Source: a virus. From it: a stretch of DNA of 64,000 bases. Position 1 is the stretch's first letter. Each line of letters starts with the position of its first letter. The DNA is taken from the IMG/VR virus record IMGVR_UViG_3300027974_000032, positions 1-64,000 of that record; one strand, 5' to 3'. Below are positions 2,854 to 10,806 of this stretch, piece by piece. The translations under genes were made by a program, and so were the position numbers. Below the pieces are notes generated by a model. That model searched no databases. It saw only the letters and a list, made by a program, of their open reading frames with translations, and was not told the origin of the DNA.

Positions 2854-2927
2854 GCACCAGTAGCCAAGTTGGTTAAGGCACCGAACTCATAATTCGGCTA
2901 TCGTAGGTTCAAGTCCTACCTGGTGTA
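2854..2927 (+). tRNA. tRNA with CAT anticodon (Met or Ile2)
   Basis: GCACCAG/CTGGTGT acceptor; CCGAA-CTCATAA-TTCGG; GTTCAAGTC T-loop. Confidence 0.9.
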
Positions 2928-2928
2928 C

Positions 2929-2957
2929 TTGACATACCGTGCAGAATTCGGTATACT
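2929..2957 (+). promoter_or_regulatory. sigmaA-type promoter
   Basis: TTGACA-17-TATACT directly after the tRNA. Confidence 0.8.
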
Positions 2958-2986
2958 TATAACATACCTACTAACAAAGGATTACA

Positions 2987-3985
2987 ATGAAGAAAATTGC
3001 TTTCATCCTACTAATAACAGTATTTTCAGTAGTTATTGCTCCTGCACAGGCATCAGACTTGTTGGCTATTGATAAGACATACTTGCCTAAAATTTCTTCT
3101 GCAGAATCACAGTATGCTAACGCATTGTCAAAATGGAAAGAAATTGATCAGGTTAAAATAACAAACGACAGTCTTCGTGTGTCCAAAATTGATGTGGTCT
3201 TCTTCAATTCAAGATTTGGTCTTTCTACAATAACTTTGAGCAACCAAGATCAAGATAGATACCCTGGCCCACCTAAAAGAATTTTAGGAAAGATAATTTC
3301 TGGAACAACAGATTGCTGTGCATTTGGATCAATTCCTGGAGGAAGAGACTCTATTTATGAACTCATTGCTTCAAACTTTGATGCTGCATACCAAGAATTT
3401 AATTGGGACTTAGAGCAAGAATATTCAACAAGTATTCACATGAGCACAGCAGCACAAGCAATTTCAGCATTTCAGCAAGGGTGGATGTGGTCTGTAAAGC
3501 AAGATGGCACTAAGGTTTCTTTCTCTGAATTTGAGACAACAAGATCTTTAGTTAAATCATCATATGCAAATTTGCAATCATTAAAAAATGAGTATGTAAA
3601 CGCAAGGTCTGACCACTTCGCTGAAGTTGATTGGATCAAAAATGCAAACATGAACCTATTATTAAATTTTCCTGCAACAGTTAAAAATAATTTAATTAAG
3701 CAAGGATACTTTAAGCCTTTAAAGACAACCTCTTATACATACGAAACTGGAAGATACATAGCAAAGGCAAGGGTAAGTGGAAACACTGCCATTGTAACTG
3801 GTTATTGGGAGACCAAGACAGCGTACGATGTTCCTACCAAAAAAGAGCAGGCTGATTGGATGAAAGAATCTCAAAAAAGATTAGATGTATCAGTTAAAGA
3901 ATACAATAGTATTATTGAAACAGCAAAGTTTAATGGTTATGTTGTTATATGTAAGCCAAATATTCCTTGTCAGGTATCATTTTAA
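2987..3985 (+). CDS. exported hypothetical protein
   Basis: Signal peptide MKKIAFILLITVFSVVIAPAQA; AAGGA SD. Confidence 0.75.
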   Translation: MKKIAFILLITVFSVVIAPAQASDLLAIDKTYLPKISSAESQYANALSKWKEIDQVKITNDSLRVSKIDVVFFNSRFGLSTITLSNQDQDRYPGPPKRILGKIISGTTDCCAFGSIPGGRDSIYELIASNFDAAYQEFNWDLEQEYSTSIHMSTAAQAISAFQQGWMWSVKQDGTKVSFSEFETTRSLVKSSYANLQSLKNEYVNARSDHFAEVDWIKNANMNLLLNFPATVKNNLIKQGYFKPLKTTSYTYETGRYIAKARVSGNTAIVTGYWETKTAYDVPTKKEQADWMKESQKRLDVSVKEYNSIIETAKFNGYVVICKPNIPCQVSF

Positions 3986-4029
3986 GATTATCTGCAAACC
4001 AGCGGTATATAAAAATATATCAAAAGTTT

Positions 4030-4106
4030 ACATCTGTAACTCAGTTGGTTAGAGTACCTGCCTTATATGCAGAGAGCCGAAGGTTCAAGTCCTTCCAGAT
4101 GTACCA
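4030..4106 (+). tRNA. tRNA-Ile(UAU)
   Basis: ACATCTG/CAGATGT acceptor; CCTGC-CTTATAT-GCAGA anticodon arm; GTTCAAGTC; encoded CCA. Confidence 0.85.
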
Positions 4107-4814
4107 CTATCCTAGATTTCCTCCACTAAGTGGATCTAAATACATAAAAATATATTTATGTGGCCACATTCTAAACTTATGCTTTTTAATTGGAAGGTCT
4201 TTAATATTAAAACCTATTAGACATTCTGGATTTATTGCAGCACCAGATGAGATCATATGGTCAACATTGCTAAATACCGAACAATATTTATCCATTAGTT
4301 CTGGAGATCCTATTGCAAAATAATCATTAATGGCATAATTTATGTTATGCTCTGTATATGGGGTGTAATCTTTTATATGTATCAAGTTTTTTTCATAGTT
4401 GTCAATTGGATCTATACAATTTGGAACAAAGGTAATATCTGTTCTAATCCTAATGACATAATCATAACTAATATTGTTATTAATTTCATATTGTTTTCTT
4501 ATGTTATTAACTTTTTCTATACCATAAAACATTGAAAGCATATTTTGTGTAATCCATGGAAACCTAATATCCTGAATGATGTCTGACCTATTAAATTCAA
4601 ATGGTTGCTCAAAACATATGTCTACTGGATTTAACCCCCTAATAATTCTTATACCCTTTGTGTCAATTTCGTCTGATGAGCACCAAAGGTGTGCAAAAAT
4701 ATCTACCTCATATTCTGGATTAAGCAAAATAAAATTTTCATAATGATTGTTAAAACAATCTAACAAGTTTCTTATTTCTCCAGAATACTGTATTGCTATA
4801 CGTCTCATAGTCAT
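4107..4814 (-). CDS. putative glycosyltransferase-like / polysaccharide-locus protein
   Basis: RIAIQYSGEIR, YDYVIRIRTDI, INDYFAIGS motifs. Confidence 0.55.
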   Translation of the reverse strand: MTMRRIAIQYSGEIRNLLDCFNNHYENFILLNPEYEVDIFAHLWCSSDEIDTKGIRIIRGLNPVDICFEQPFEFNRSDIIQDIRFPWITQNMLSMFYGIEKVNNIRKQYEINNNISYDYVIRIRTDITFVPNCIDPIDNYEKNLIHIKDYTPYTEHNINYAINDYFAIGSPELMDKYCSVFSNVDHMISSGAAINPECLIGFNIKDLPIKKHKFRMWPHKYIFMYLDPLSGGNLG

Positions 4815-4830
4815 TTTATTATAGCATGGC

Positions 4831-4859
4831 TTGACAGGTCTGGTTTTAAACTGTATACT
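4831..4859 (+). promoter_or_regulatory. sigmaA-type promoter for tRNA-Arg (divergent TATAAT at 4818-4823 on minus strand)
   Basis: TTGACA-17-TATACT. Confidence 0.8.
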
Positions 4860-4867
4860 TAGTGTAT

Positions 4868-4943
4868 ACCCCTGTAGTTCAGTGGACAGAACGATGGACT
4901 TCTAAGCCATGCGTCGCAGGTTCGATTCCTGCCAGGGGTACCA
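4868..4943 (+). tRNA. tRNA-Arg(UCU)
   Basis: ACCCCTG/CAGGGGT; CTTCTAA loop; GTTCGATTC; CCA. Confidence 0.92.
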
Positions 4944-4984
4944 ATGGTTATGCTGTATAATTAAAATAGAAATGAGGCTGATTT

Positions 4985-6001
4985 TTGACAATAGATATAC
5001 TTGAACAATATTCTTATAATGAAGAAACAAAGAAACTTTTAGATTTTTATTTATTGCAACTTAATAGCCCTTCTTTTATTCCTGGAATAATAAAAATGAC
5101 AAGAGATAATTTAAACGTGCAAGAGGGGCTCACAACATTTGACGAAGTTAATGAATATAAAATAAATAATAATGGGTTTAGAGGTTCTAATTTTACAAAT
5201 AAACAGATAGATATTTTGGGTGCTGGTTGCTCTGTGACTTTTGGCATTGGTGTGCCAGAAGATGGGACATGGGTTAAGATTTTGTCAGAAATTCAAAATA
5301 AAAGTTATGTCAACCTATCTCTACCAGGATCTTCAGTAACTGAAATTTGTAATAAGATAGTAAAGTATTGTATGAATTATGGTAATCCAAAATCTGTTTA
5401 TTGCCTATTCCCTGATTTCTTTAGAATGCTTTTTGTGCAAGATTTTAATTATGATGTTGCTAAAAAATATCTTGGTAGTAGTTCTAATATTGACAAAACC
5501 ATAAAACTTTCTACTCCAAATGTTGCTAACACAATGTCTCATTTTTATGAAAATAATAAAGACAAGTTGTTAGTCGAAATTGATAGAAAAGATGGTAGGT
5601 CTTTAGAAAATTCTATATCACCACATCAGGCAGTTCTAGAATCAATTAACTCAATATACTTTTTAGAATCTTTTTGTAAAACAAACAACATAAAACTATT
5701 TTGGTCCACATGGTCTAATATTACAAAAGTTTTGCTTGATAAACTAAATGAAATTAAAAATTTTGAACTAACACAATATTTTGCATTTGATGAAATAACA
5801 TATAAAACTTATAATCCAAATAATATTGTAAATAAATGCAAATCTTCTCATGACTCAAAATTTATATCTAGTATTTGTTGGGAAGAGGGCAGTGATTTTA
5901 TGGCAGAAAATAATAAAAAGGTTAAGCACTTTATGTCACATCCTGGAATTCATTTTCACTATCACACCGCAGAAATGTTTAACTCATTAGTTGACCAATA
6001 G
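4985..6001 (+). CDS. SGNH/GDSL-like hypothetical protein; paralog of 23061..23954
   Basis: NNNGFRG...GAGCSVTFGIG...NLSLPGSS...HPG. Confidence 0.6.
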   Translation: MTIDILEQYSYNEETKKLLDFYLLQLNSPSFIPGIIKMTRDNLNVQEGLTTFDEVNEYKINNNGFRGSNFTNKQIDILGAGCSVTFGIGVPEDGTWVKILSEIQNKSYVNLSLPGSSVTEICNKIVKYCMNYGNPKSVYCLFPDFFRMLFVQDFNYDVAKKYLGSSSNIDKTIKLSTPNVANTMSHFYENNKDKLLVEIDRKDGRSLENSISPHQAVLESINSIYFLESFCKTNNIKLFWSTWSNITKVLLDKLNEIKNFELTQYFAFDEITYKTYNPNNIVNKCKSSHDSKFISSICWEEGSDFMAENNKKVKHFMSHPGIHFHYHTAEMFNSLVDQ

Positions 6002-6019
6002 CGTTTTAAGTGCTATACT
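5991..6019 (+). promoter_or_regulatory. promoter of tRNA cluster
   Basis: TTGACC-17-TATACT with TG extension. Confidence 0.75.
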
Positions 6020-6031
6020 AATATAGTACAT

Positions 6032-6104
6032 TGGCCCATAACTCAGTTGGTAGAGTGCCGAACTGTTAATTCGGATGTCCCAGGATCGAAACCTGGTGGG
6101 CCAG
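6032..6104 (+). tRNA. tRNA-Asn(GUU)
   Basis: TGGCCCA/TGGGCCA; CCGAA-CTGTTAA-TTCGG; T-loop variant GATCGAAA. Confidence 0.88.
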
Positions 6105-6108
6105 CGAA

Positions 6109-6182
6109 GGTCTCGTAGTTCAGTTGGTTAGAACGCCACCCTGTCACGGTGGAGGTCGACGGTTCGAGTCCGTTCGGGATCG
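6109..6182 (+). tRNA. tRNA-Asp(GUC)
   Basis: CCACC-CTGTCAC-GGTGG; GTTCGAGTC. Confidence 0.92.
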
Positions 6183-6186
6183 CAAG

Positions 6187-6257
6187 GCGAGTGTTGCATA
6201 ATGGTAGTGCATCATCCTTCCAAGTTGATTGTGCCAGTTCGATTCTGGTCACTCGCT
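6187..6257 (+). tRNA. tRNA-Gly(UCC)
   Basis: GCGAGTG/CACTCGC; CTTCCAA loop; GTTCGATTC. Confidence 0.9.
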
Positions 6258-6267
6258 CTAGTAACAA

Positions 6268-6340
6268 GTCTCCATGGTCTAGGGGCCTAGGACTCCACCC
6301 TTTCACGGTGGCAACACGGGTTCGAATCCCGTTGGAGATA
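6268..6340 (+). tRNA. tRNA-Glu(UUC)
   Basis: GTCTCCA/TGGAGAT; CCACC-CTTTCAC-GGTGG; GTTCGAATC. Confidence 0.92.
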
Positions 6341-6341
6341 C

Positions 6342-8266: not shown

Positions 8267-9015
8267 ACTTTATATTGTACCATAGTAAATCCCTGGGGTT
8301 TTGGGGGAATTACAAGGGTGGTCATGCCAAGTTTTCCAAAAAACTCTTTTGGATCAGTATCTCCAATTAACTCTATTAGGCTTGATGCTTTATCTATTAA
8401 TGTTTTGCTTCCTTCTTCATGTCCAGCATTTACCAAAAGAGCAATCTCACGGTCTTCCTCAAAAACATCAATAGTTTTTTGTAGTATCTCCTTCATAGCA
8501 GTTTTGTGATCTAATATAACAGAGCAGTATGGAAGATCTTTTATGTTATTTAAATGAGACAATATCTCATGCTGTTCTAAACCAAAAAGTTCAAGTACCA
8601 CATATGCCTTTTCACCTGTAACAATACCAGAAAGTGCAATTGCCATTGGCCCAATGCTTGGTCCCGCTATAATATCTACTGGATATTTTAATGTATGTAA
8701 ATGCTTTATAAGCATGGAGCCTGGGTCTGCTGTACCTGGATAGCCCATCTCAACAATTAAAACAACATCCTCATTGTTATCAAGTTTATCAGTTACCATA
8801 TCATAAAATTCATCACTATGCTGAAATTCAATTGGTTTCTTCTTTAGTGTAATACCTAAAAAATCTAAATCTTTATAAAATTGCTCTTCTTTTTCTACGA
8901 TAATGTTATTAGACCTTTTAAATAATTCTATGACTCTGCTTGGAAGATCTTTTTTATTTCCAAGATGACTTGGAGCAATTATTAGTTTACCTACATTAGT
9001 TTTTATTTCCAACAT
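8263..9015 (-). CDS. RsmI-like (TP_methylase fold) SAM-dependent methyltransferase
   Basis: LIIAPSHLGNKKDL, EMGYPGTADPG, IIAGPS...ALSG match RsmI motifs PIGNLED / SDAGxPxISDPG / PGPSA. Confidence 0.7.
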   Translation of the reverse strand: MLEIKTNVGKLIIAPSHLGNKKDLPSRVIELFKRSNNIIVEKEEQFYKDLDFLGITLKKKPIEFQHSDEFYDMVTDKLDNNEDVVLIVEMGYPGTADPGSMLIKHLHTLKYPVDIIAGPSIGPMAIALSGIVTGEKAYVVLELFGLEQHEILSHLNNIKDLPYCSVILDHKTAMKEILQKTIDVFEEDREIALLVNAGHEEGSKTLIDKASSLIELIGDTDPKEFFGKLGMTTLVIPPKPQGFTMVQYKV

Positions 9016-9028
9016 ATGAAACTATCTA

Positions 9029-9478
9029 TTAGTCAATTTCATTTTCTTTGCTTACTGCTGAAAGCATCCAGTGCCATCTTTGATGCTGGTCCATTCTTTC
9101 TGCAAAGAAGTTTGCAAGTGCATGTTGTCTATTGGCTGTGGCCATTTCCACTGCATCTGCTAATTTTGATAGCACCATGTCGTTTGCCATAAGTAAATCA
9201 GCAGACATTGTCATTGGATCAGAAGATACTTCTGGCTCCCCAACTTCATTTAATTCTATAAATCTTGATAGTTTGAATGGTGCATATGCATCTAATTTTC
9301 TCAACCACTCTGCATATGTATCTGTTGCTGACTCATAGTCTGCATATATGTCACCAAAAAAACTATGAAACTGAGGAAAATCATCACCCTCTACATTCCA
9401 GTGATACCCGTGAGCCTTTAACTTAAGAGTTATATTATCTGCAAGCAACACCTTTAGTAAATTTATGATTTGATCCAT
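9029..9478 (-). CDS. dps: Dps DNA-protection ferritin-like protein
   Basis: AHGYHWNVEG..F..FH..F..IY; HQRWHWML. Confidence 0.92.
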   Translation of the reverse strand: MDQIINLLKVLLADNITLKLKAHGYHWNVEGDDFPQFHSFFGDIYADYESATDTYAEWLRKLDAYAPFKLSRFIELNEVGEPEVSSDPMTMSADLLMANDMVLSKLADAVEMATANRQHALANFFAERMDQHQRWHWMLSAVSKENEID

Positions 9479-9498
9479 ATAACCATTATAGCATGAGG

Positions 9499-9765
9499 TT
9501 ATTCAGCAAGGCGTTGATGTGTTCTTACTCTATGGCAATTAGCGCAAACTACTTCACACTTTTCTATCTCTTTTTTAATGGCTTTCCATGAAAAACCATC
9601 ATGTATCATTCTGGATATATTGTATTTTTTATCTCTTATGTGGTCAAAATCTAATATTATATGGTTTCCTATGCCACAGTCTACACAGCCAGAATCTTCC
9701 TTTATCTTAGCAAGCATCTTTTTATACTGCTGCTTATTATAATGTTCCAACTCTTTGTCAGTCAT
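9499..9765 (-). CDS. small HNH endonuclease
   Basis: CVDCG...LDFDH...CEVVCANCHRVRT; leaderless TATAAT-7-ATG. Confidence 0.85.
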   Translation of the reverse strand: MTDKELEHYNKQQYKKMLAKIKEDSGCVDCGIGNHIILDFDHIRDKKYNISRMIHDGFSWKAIKKEIEKCEVVCANCHRVRTHQRLAE

Positions 9766-9789
9766 TGATGTTATTATACCGCCAAATGT

Positions 9790-9877
9790 TAAGCCCTACA
9801 CAGGCAATTCACCTGACTTGCGCCACGGTCTCTATCCAATGGGTAACTAATCCATCACTAAGGTCCTGTGTAGGGAC
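9790..9877 (-). ncRNA. putative structured sRNA A (three-way junction)
   Basis: TGCTACAAT -10 at 9884-9889; perfect 11-bp P1 CCCUACACAGG/CCUGUGUAGGG; P2 UGAUGG/CCAUUG; P3 with GCAA tetraloop. Confidence 0.65.
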
Positions 9878-9894
9878 AACATAATTGTAGCATG

Positions 9895-10005
9895 AAAAAT
9901 GAGCACTTTATAGACTTGCTCAGGTCCCCCAGGGTGCGACCCTGGGCGTATCCGTACTCAGCAATAAGGTCGCTTAAAAAGCAACTGCATGTATCATGAC
10001 GGAAT
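9895..10005 (-). ncRNA. putative structured sRNA B (four-way junction + hairpin + terminator)
   Basis: TATAAT at 10011-10016; UCCGU/ACGGA closing three hairpins; CCCAGGGU/ACCCUGGG; UGAGCA/UGCUCA-U5. Confidence 0.6.
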
Positions 10006-10016
10006 ATTCTATTATA

Positions 10017-10433
10017 CTACTGAATTTCAATAGTTTTTGGCTTTTTATCTTCAGGAACAATTCTCTCAATTTTTACTTTGAGTAGTCCATCACTAAGGGA
10101 TGCGCCAACAACCTCCATATATTCTCCAAGAGCAAAAAACTTTCTAAAATTTCTAGAAGCAATGCCCTTATGGACAAACGAAGTTTCTTCTTCGTCAAGT
10201 TTTAACCCATGAATGTCAAGTTGGTTCCCATGTACACTAACATCGATTTCTTCTTTTGTGAATCCTGCAACTGCAAGTTCGATCATATAGTTATCTTCAT
10301 TGATTTTGATTAAGTTATGTGGTGGATAATTTGTTGAAAATATCTCTGTATTATCTTTCATTCTTTGGATATCTTTTCCAAAGCCAATAAAAAATGGATC
10401 ATTAAATAGATCCATAGCAAGTTTTGTTACCAT
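10017..10433 (-). CDS. hsp20: small heat shock protein (Hsp20/IbpA-like)
   Basis: NYPPHNL...IELAVAGF...HKGIASRNF...DGLLKV. Confidence 0.95.
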   Translation of the reverse strand: MVTKLAMDLFNDPFFIGFGKDIQRMKDNTEIFSTNYPPHNLIKINEDNYMIELAVAGFTKEEIDVSVHGNQLDIHGLKLDEEETSFVHKGIASRNFRKFFALGEYMEVVGASLSDGLLKVKIERIVPEDKKPKTIEIQ

Positions 10434-10489
10434 TTTATTCCCCTTTCAAGCGAATAAGTTAATTACCCCCCATTTGGGCAGGTAATAAT
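10434..10489 (-). promoter_or_regulatory. ROSE-like RNA thermometer in hsp20 5'UTR
   Basis: UUAUUCGCUU-GAAA-GGGGAAUAA pairs SD with UCGCU (bulged G); upstream second hairpin; TGCTATAAT at 10490-10498. Confidence 0.7.
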
Positions 10490-10501
10490 ATTATAGCATA
10501 G

Positions 10502-10534
10502 AAAAGCAGGCTAGTCAAATCACAACTAGCCTGC
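10502..10534 (-). terminator. rho-independent terminator
   Basis: GCAGGCTAGT/ACTAGCCTGC 10-bp stem followed by TTTT on minus strand. Confidence 0.75.
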
Positions 10535-10542
10535 CAATCTAA

Positions 10543-10806
10543 TTACTTCTTTGCTGCTGTCTTCTTAGCAGGTGCCTTCTTTACAGTAGCCTTCTTTGCT
10601 GCTGCATCAACTTCCACTACATCTGGCATCTTGCCAAATGCTGTGTCGTTTGGATTGACTGCTCTTAATGCCACGGGCGCTAAGGCTGCCAATAGTGAGT
10701 ATGCAAGTGTCTTAGGATCTGTAACCCCAGACATATATAGTGCAAGCGCAGCGCCAAGAACTGATCGTCCGTATGATGCTAGCAATGCCTTTGTTGTTTC
10801 ATTCAT
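10543..10806 (-). CDS. holin-like membrane protein with basic tail
   Basis: Two hydrophobic segments, LNPND..FG-type motif, KKAPAKK tail. Confidence 0.55.
   Translation of the reverse strand: MNETTKALLASYGRSVLGAALALYMSGVTDPKTLAYSLLAALAPVALRAVNPNDTAFGKMPDVVEVDAAAKKATVKKAPAKKTAAKK

Follow-up and report, generated by a model that had tools for sequence, protein, structure and literature searches.

Between the hsp20 gene and a small HNH nuclease gene of an uncultured virus lies a non-coding stretch that an initial annotation read as an RNA with its own promoter. The locus raises the question of whether this stretch is a genuine RNA gene and, if so, what it has to do with the nuclease gene that follows it.

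The window analysed here consists of 64,000 nt of a 75-kb IMG/VR virus contig (IMGVR_UViG_3300027974_000032), which has a G+C content of 35.5% and holds nearly all of its genes on the minus strand. Its large terminase is 54% identical at the amino acid level to those of Streptomyces phages of Stanwilliamsviridae, in agreement with the actinophage relatives that the initial annotation had named, and according to ARAGORN the window contains seven tRNAs (2854-6341). The genome mixes genes led by a Shine-Dalgarno sequence with leaderless genes in which TGNTAYAAT stands 5-8 nt before the ATG; 13 of the 14 sites of this motif in the window are on the coding strand (a bias of 13:1). Read along the minus strand, the order at the locus is hsp20 (10433..10017), a 250-nt gap, the HNH gene, a Dps/ferritin-like gene and an RsmI-like methyltransferase gene. 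The features of the locus are as follows.

10433..10017, minus strand: hsp20, the gene upstream of the RNA
9884..9892, minus strand: predicted extended -10 promoter of the RNA (TGCTACAAT), from the sequence; also the left-hand member of the duplicated promoter pair around the cassette
9794..9877, minus strand: structured RNA body, predicted +1 near 9877, from the fold, the covariance model, covariation and the lack of a conserved open frame
9865..9875, minus strand: 5' strand of P1 (CCCUACACAGG), pairing with 9794-9804 in 11 perfect pairs
9864..9858, minus strand: joiner J1/2, ACCUUAG, from the sequence
9837..9857, minus strand: P2 hairpin, UGAUGG (9857..9852) with CCAUUG (9842..9837) and a 9-nt loop AUUAGUUAC, the universally conserved core of the family
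9811..9829, minus strand: P3 hairpin, ACC-G-UGGC-GCAA-GUCA-GGU with a GCAA loop, the variable arm
9810..9805, minus strand: joiner J3/1, GAAUUG, from the sequence
9794..9804, minus strand: 3' strand of P1 (CCUGUGUAGGG), where the RNA body ends; a moderately U-rich tail comes next
9773..9778, minus strand: -10 box of the HNH gene, TATAAT, 7 nt before the ATG at 9765 (leaderless)
9499..9765, minus strand: minimal HNH nuclease gene (88 aa), from a PHROG profile and CxxC...DH...CxxCH motifs; the constant genetic partner of the RNA
9485..9493, minus strand: right copy of the extended -10 (TGCTATAAT), which restores a promoter for the leaderless dps (ATG at 9478)
9478..9029, minus strand: dps (Dps/ferritin-like), leaderless, ATG at 9478

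As seen in the list, the parts that the initial annotation had described are present on the minus strand, including the extended -10 (9892..9884), the perfect 11-bp stem (P1, 9875..9865 with 9804..9794) and both inner hairpins, P2 and P3. The window copy has a minimum free energy of -35.5 kcal/mol on the minus strand (z = -3.5 vs shuffles) and about the same by energy on the plus strand (z = -4.0), so energy alone does not fix the strand; covariation and G-U pairs do. The G-U pairs form on the minus strand only, as had been proposed, and a covariance model built for the family matches the window at 9790-9879 with 92 bits on the minus strand. In relatives, the model gives 53-104 bits on the gene strand vs 13-25 bits for the reverse reading of the same element, and the many G-U wobbles are one-sided (G:U in 34 cases at one P2 pair, U:G in 12 cases in P1). 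The strand was therefore fixed as minus. Apart from P1, no perfect spaced inverted repeat of 11 bp or more in the 64-kb window is G+C-rich and encloses a large interior (60 nt in P1).

The initial annotation did not recognise the family, and a cmscan of 9000-10800 against Rfam 15 (E<=10) likewise gave no match to the element on its own strand. The sole overlapping row is a plus-strand match to SNORD47 (9760-9818; 22.3 bits vs a gathering score of 50), which we attribute to chance. A tRNA or tmRNA was rejected: ARAGORN calls no tRNA at 9790-9880, and the P3 loop is variable in sequence and not T-loop-like. A hammerhead ribozyme with the closing stem as stem III was rejected as well (no conserved CUGANGA/GAAA, no Rfam hammerhead match), and so was a small peptide gene, given stops in every frame in 66-100% of the members and lengths that are not multiples of three.

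To follow the element across viruses, relatives were gathered using the hsp20 and HNH proteins, two DNA patterns and divergent HNH proteins. With the covariance model, we were able to identify the RNA in several hundred IMG/VR contigs, which reduce to the 100 distinct sequences of the covariance model alignment (a MAFFT version was also analysed). In these 100 sequences, 99.8% of the P1 cells are paired, with compensatory double changes at 10 of the 11 pairs, and 98% of the P2 cells are paired, with changes on both sides at three of five pairs. The observed covariation score was reached by none of 500 shuffles, and pairing falls to 30-58% in a control in which the partners are slid by 1-3 columns. 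The changes in P2 include GAUGG/CCAUU to GGUGG/CUACU (A:U to G:C) and, in one lineage, the loss of one G and one C on opposite sides. P1 thus covaries strongly and P2 modestly, the support for P2 being few in number and clean in kind. The conserved structured RNA that had been proposed therefore holds up in its relatives.

The three-way junction of the initial annotation is borne out for the subclass to which the window belongs; family-wide, the universal parts are P1 and P2 only. This core consists of P1 and P2; a CUUAG precedes P2, whose loop, A-N-UAGUUAC, is invariant, with UAGUUAC kept even in homologues fetched via the HNH protein alone. P3 is thermodynamically marginal on its own and has at least two architectures in close relatives. 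In the most distant members (from protein-only retrieval), it is replaced by an insertion in J1/2 that pairs with the 3' region, giving a rod-like molecule tipped by P2. Between P2 and P3, the joiner is A/U-rich and variable in sequence and length, and J3/1 reads UGAAU(U/C)R.

Among 47 loci with an HNH protein at least 90% identical to that of the window, identity is 94.5% for the RNA, 81% for the spacer between the RNA and the HNH gene and 57% at four-fold sites of the HNH gene (the amino acid identity of the HNH protein is about 94%). A recent horizontal sweep behind the conservation of the RNA was rejected on these figures, given the low identity (57%) at four-fold sites in the gene next to it; being near saturation, these sites indicate that the pairing of the RNA with the HNH gene is old. 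The conservation of the RNA is purifying selection on its sequence. We are highly confident that the element represents a genuine, selected, structured RNA family absent from Rfam. A published IMG/VR collection of over 10,000 candidate structured RNAs (PMC10690425) does not mention HNH or hsp20 in its text, and it may contain the motif already.

Among 185,579 species genomes, the RNA was found in two contigs only, both from metagenome-assembled genomes (MAGs), one binned as Methylococcus (L394) and the other as Polynucleobacter (L395). Both are true copies of the RNA (62-63 bits), probably on phage-like DNA that was mis-binned into bacterial MAGs, and as host hints they are weak at best; a bacterial origin or host clue was rejected on this count. 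The RNA family belongs to uncultured freshwater actinophage-like viruses.

In 93 of the 100 distinct members, whatever the upstream context, a -10 hexamer (in most cases TATAAT or TACAAT) stops 7-8 nt short of the P1 core; the seven exceptions have a common, different upstream block with TAAATA. A simple sigma-70 scan makes no call at this promoter, because a -35 element is absent. Past P1, the next ten bases average 5.1 T vs about three expected (a moderate U-tract), and a second -10 and a start codon follow no more than 45 nt downstream of the RNA in 89 of 99 members. The window fits this pattern, with the leaderless HNH promoter where it had been reported (TATAAT at 9778..9773, 7 nt before the ATG at 9765). 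With its own upstream -10, the promoter of the downstream gene and a T-rich tail, the RNA would therefore be a separate unit between two promoters, and we consider it likely that it is its own transcription unit; we infer transcription and the transcript ends from these signals. The claim that the element is not simply the untranslated region of the HNH gene is upheld by distant relatives, in which the two genes are convergent at a distance of 0.6-8.6 kb, so the RNA is not simply an HNH leader.

We note a second conserved non-coding element in the window (9893-10016, minus strand), between the hsp20 stop codon and the RNA promoter, with a TATAAT directly 3' of the hsp20 stop codon and an 8-bp hairpin in its fold (CCAGGGUC/GACCCUGG, including the 7-bp CCCAGGG/CCCUGGG). 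It is 86-94% identical across about 50 loci, has a fold z of -2.3 and has no match in Rfam. Its placement relative to hsp20 and the three-way-junction RNA varies (it is upstream of hsp20 in relative L141), and it is therefore an independent unit. The hsp20 leader (10493-10548, minus strand) contains a 13-bp hairpin followed by a T-run, with TGCTATAAT at 10498..10490, and gives a weak Chlorobi-RRM match (23.7 bits vs a gathering score of 45).

The protein encoded downstream of the RNA matches PHROG HNH endonuclease families (E = 2.6e-22 and 4e-20), its CxxC...DH...CxxCH motifs are kept over 40 homologues, and tblastn with it finds genes annotated as HNH endonuclease in cultured phages; against the Pfam HNH model it scores below threshold. 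The RNA is found about 20 nt upstream of the HNH gene in all 80 nearest HNH loci. In a panel of 50 related contigs selected solely for hsp20, the RNA and the HNH gene are both present in the same 14, always adjacent, and neither is present in the other 36, which include three complete genomes. The RNA of the initial annotation is thus stand-alone as far as its promoter goes (93 of 100 members) and not genetically so, being closely tied to the HNH gene. A core gene of the phage group was rejected, the RNA being absent from the three complete genomes (one weak match there falls in coding sequence), and the RNA gene as a pre-existing homing target was rejected within the hsp20 panel, where the RNA never occurs without the HNH gene (0 of 50 contigs).

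The coupling extends to loci in which the two genes have moved apart. Out of 24 RNA copies that have no HNH gene next to them, 23 have a homologue elsewhere in the contig, usually 0.8-4 kb off and convergent; the one copy without any HNH homologue is on a 14-kb fragment. Using HNH homologues of only 40-47% identity (protein-only retrieval), we found the RNA downstream and convergent at 35 of 44 loci, plus 11 others. There is one RNA copy per genome, and in some genomes there are extra HNH paralogues without an RNA alongside. In one relative (L065:3380-3460), a natural deletion joins the end of hsp20 in frame to the P2 loop and takes the promoter, the 5' strand of P1 and J1/2, leaving the downstream HNH gene and its promoter intact; with an intact HNH gene beside a 5'-truncated RNA, the nuclease can therefore exist without an intact RNA. 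Taken over all these loci, the RNA and the HNH gene are gained, lost and kept together, which suggests that the pair probably works or moves as one.

The RNA-linked HNH proteins are bare domains of 81-105 aa with about 20 residues before the first CxxC. The RNA is present in 46 of 51 loci with such short forms (the five misses have less than 2.2 kb of flank) and in none of 24 loci with long forms (157-193 aa), although these counts, like those of co-occurrence, are not phylogenetically independent and forms with a helix-turn-helix (HTH) occur in few clades. Most of the long forms have an N-terminal HTH, seen as several sub-threshold Pfam HTH matches at residues 42-74. Long and short forms are both found in the hsp20 neighborhood; in L432 (6146-6652), L436 (3744-4271) and L445-L459, an HNH gene of 157-176 aa with an HTH-like N-terminus lies upstream of hsp20 on the same strand, without the RNA. 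In two distant relatives (L264:2888-5078 and L472:8032-10363), a gene for hsp20 or for an 'MPY' protein is followed by the RNA and by one to three opposite-strand cargo genes, glycosyl- or sulfotransferase-like, with a minimal HNH at their head; thus the RNA and the HNH gene bracket a variable segment there.

Relatives with an empty site show how the two genes sit in the genome. Two of them, L026 and L041, have hsp20 and dps and neither the RNA nor the HNH gene, and they align with the window on either side of the cassette. Each has a single ATGCTATAAT box directly before the leaderless dps (L026, 1189-1204; L041, 4746-4761). In the window the extended -10 box (ATGCTAYAAT) is found twice, at 9892..9884 and 9493..9485, flanking the RNA and the HNH gene, and recombination between the two copies would cut out both genes precisely. 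Presence of the cassette is polymorphic (the 14 of 50 related contigs above), and so is its setting: hsp20 is upstream in 114 of 168 unique RNA instances, and the remainder fall into about 25 other contexts. The element is usually found 10-70 nt after the hsp20 stop codon.

With these observations, we propose the following mechanism. An independently transcribed, stable RNA of about 85-90 nt would start at the conserved -10 box, with its 5' end at the base of P1, and would probably be terminated by P1 and the U-rich stretch. P1 would present P2, whose invariant 9-nt loop A-N-UAGUUAC is the likely business end and would bind a partner in trans. The RNA and the minimal HNH protein would form an accessory two-gene module, gained or lost jointly and kept through rearrangements; the nuclease is the most likely partner, and the RNA would regulate it or give it specificity, replacing the DNA-binding domain that RNA-less homologues carry. 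That the RNA acts in trans as a partner (cofactor or inhibitor) of the minimal nuclease is our tentative reading, with somewhat less than even weight; that it is an obligate molecular partner, either a cofactor replacing the binding and specificity of the HTH or an inhibitor of the bare nuclease (a type-III-like pair with a DNase toxin), appears unlikely. The family, its structure and the selection on it, the conserved promoter, the co-occurrence and the domain correlation are shown directly, whereas action in trans and a physical interaction between the RNA and the nuclease are what we infer.

Other partners of the loop were also considered. The loop and the 3' strand of P2 are complementary to the hsp20 start region (AUGGUAAC), at chance level (rank 37 among 80 start regions of the window), and this complementarity is not kept in relatives whose hsp20 start differs. 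An antisense regulator of hsp20 was therefore rejected: the start is the same in genomes with and without the RNA, and the best-pairing relatives have another hsp20 start. Pairing of P3 with the start of the HNH gene was rejected too, as it amounts to a match of only 5 nt and is absent in the other P3 types. In the window, sites complementary to the loop occur at chance level.

The partner reading is favoured by strict co-occurrence, by persistence through rearrangement and by the missing DNA-binding domain, the RNA-linked nuclease having none where its RNA-less relatives keep one. Against it, a cassette that moves as a unit would give the same co-occurrence with no molecular interaction, the RNA has no variable guide-like segment that tracks the insertion site, and an RNA-dependent HNH protein that stands alone at 88 aa would be without precedent. 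The truncated RNA of L065, the extra HNH paralogues, the cultured Streptomyces phages with HNH homologues and no RNA, and the moderate U-tract after P1 count against it too. A selfish cassette is the alternative to be weighed most closely: the HNH protein would be a homing endonuclease of the free-standing kind that drags the RNA with it as unrelated cargo or a 'host' gene, and the RNA would have another target (e.g. as a decoy or regulator of a host factor) and depend on the nuclease for its spread only. Empty sites and the relatives in tRNA arrays favour such a cargo, as do the presence/absence polymorphism with a clean empty site and a promoter duplicated at the ends, the roughly 25 different upstream contexts (with hsp20 dominant), and the occurrence of all HNH forms near hsp20, a conserved gene fit for a homing target. 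The HNH homologues of the nearest cultured relatives are embedded in tRNA arrays, in line with the published association of SegB with tRNAs (PMC2330249, PMC13096335). Homing genes normally decay once fixed, and such decay should leave genomes with the RNA only, none of which was found save the one 14-kb fragment. The pairing is moreover old, going by the near-saturated four-fold sites, it outlives the change from a tandem to a convergent layout, and an HNH lacking a DNA-binding domain is unusual for a site-specific homing enzyme; an HTH-like N-terminus, as a module for site specificity, is seen in the RNA-less homologues only. We regard the selfish cassette as somewhat unlikely.

Three further readings were weighed. 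The element could act in cis at the end of the hsp20 message, as a terminator, insulator or processing or stabilising structure (in convergent layouts a bidirectional terminator), rather than as an RNA in trans. It usually follows the hsp20 stop codon closely, P1 forms a long, G+C-rich hairpin with a T-enriched stretch behind it, and at class II loci the RNA reaches with its 3' end directly to the stop codon of the convergent gene. A terminator needs neither an invariant 9-nt loop nor junction bases conserved across deep divergence, the conserved -10 directly before P1 would have no role in termination, and 36 of 50 hsp20-bearing relatives manage without the element. The features of an intrinsic terminator are mixed: P1 is G+C-rich and its tail has 5.1 T per 10 nt vs about three expected, while P1 closes a 60-nt multibranch interior and a simple terminator scan makes no call. 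The invariant loop and the promoter in front make a role in cis less likely, and we judge it quite improbable. A new class of self-cleaving ribozyme or ligand-binding aptamer would account for a compact junction fold with invariant unpaired nucleotides that matches no known family, but the joiner J2/3, which is hammerhead-like, is conserved neither in sequence nor in length, there is no expression platform (the downstream genes differ and have their own promoters), and with just P1 and P2 universal there is little room for a catalytic or binding pocket; this is very unlikely. Least credible is a DNA-level element, i.e. a cruciform or a protein site recognised by the nuclease, and not an RNA. 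Watson-Crick covariation is strand-neutral and the plus strand of the window copy is equal by fold energy, but the one-sided G-U wobbles, the low scores of the reversed model and the conserved promoter in front of the element all speak for an RNA.

Few structured phage RNAs have both strong comparative support and a clear genetic partner, and the family merits an Rfam entry under either reading of its function; it is also directly testable with cloned DNA. If the RNA and the nuclease interact, they would be the smallest known RNA-associated HNH system and a new kind of phage-borne RNA-dependent nuclease module, offering a route to how bare nuclease domains gain specificity or stay harmless. 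If they do not, the principle of SegB and tRNAs, in which a homing nuclease aids the inheritance of small RNA genes, would extend to an RNA that is not a tRNA and to an HNH enzyme of actinophage-like viruses.

Among known systems, the locus resembles type III toxin-antitoxin pairs of the ToxIN type in its order (promoter, structured RNA, weak terminator, small nuclease gene) and in its co-inheritance. ToxIN antitoxin RNAs, however, are tandem repeats processed by an endoribonuclease toxin, whereas the RNA here is single-copy and the protein is an HNH nuclease; also unlike ToxIN, the nuclease gene has its own promoter, the two genes are convergent and kilobases apart in far relatives, and one relative has a truncated RNA beside an intact HNH gene. 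Membership was therefore rejected, on one RNA copy per genome and on an HNH nuclease in place of a ToxN-like RNase. IscB and its omega RNA (HEARO in Rfam) are likewise an HNH-containing nuclease tied genetically to an adjacent structured RNA on mobile DNA. IscB, however, has about 400-500 aa with RuvC and HNH domains and an RNA of several hundred nt with a guide, as compared to 88 aa and an HNH domain only; with no RuvC domain, no variable guide segment and no HEARO match in the Rfam cmscan, membership was rejected here too. Loop-initiated antisense RNAs (e.g. CopA and Sok) use a YUNR U-turn loop, and the stable hairpin with an invariant loop holding a YUNR-type UUAG recalls them; unlike for those RNAs, no conserved complementary target was found for the loop.

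Another close parallel is SegB of phages T4 and T6, a homing endonuclease linked to tRNA genes, whose inheritance and amplification it promotes (PMC2330249; PMC13096335): like the nuclease of the window, it is small, free-standing and phage-encoded, lies beside genes for small structured RNAs and is co-inherited with them. The HNH homologues of cultured Streptomyces phages (45-56% identity, 96-147 aa) lie inside tRNA gene arrays and recall the same association; in Tribute (L440), Wofford (L441), Daubenski (L442) and Bordeaux (L443), the HNH gene has its nearest tRNA gene about 7-250 nt off, on one side or both. No match to the RNA at E<=1 was obtained in two Streptomyces phage genomes that encode HNH homologues, and a cultured model phage for the RNA was rejected on this result. 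SegB is a GIY-YIG enzyme with a DNA-binding region, whereas the nuclease of the window is a bare 88-aa HNH domain, and the neighbors of SegB are tRNAs, which the RNA beside the window HNH is not. Finally, tRNA genes are widespread without SegB, whereas the RNA described here was found in no contig without an HNH homologue, save for one 14-kb fragment.
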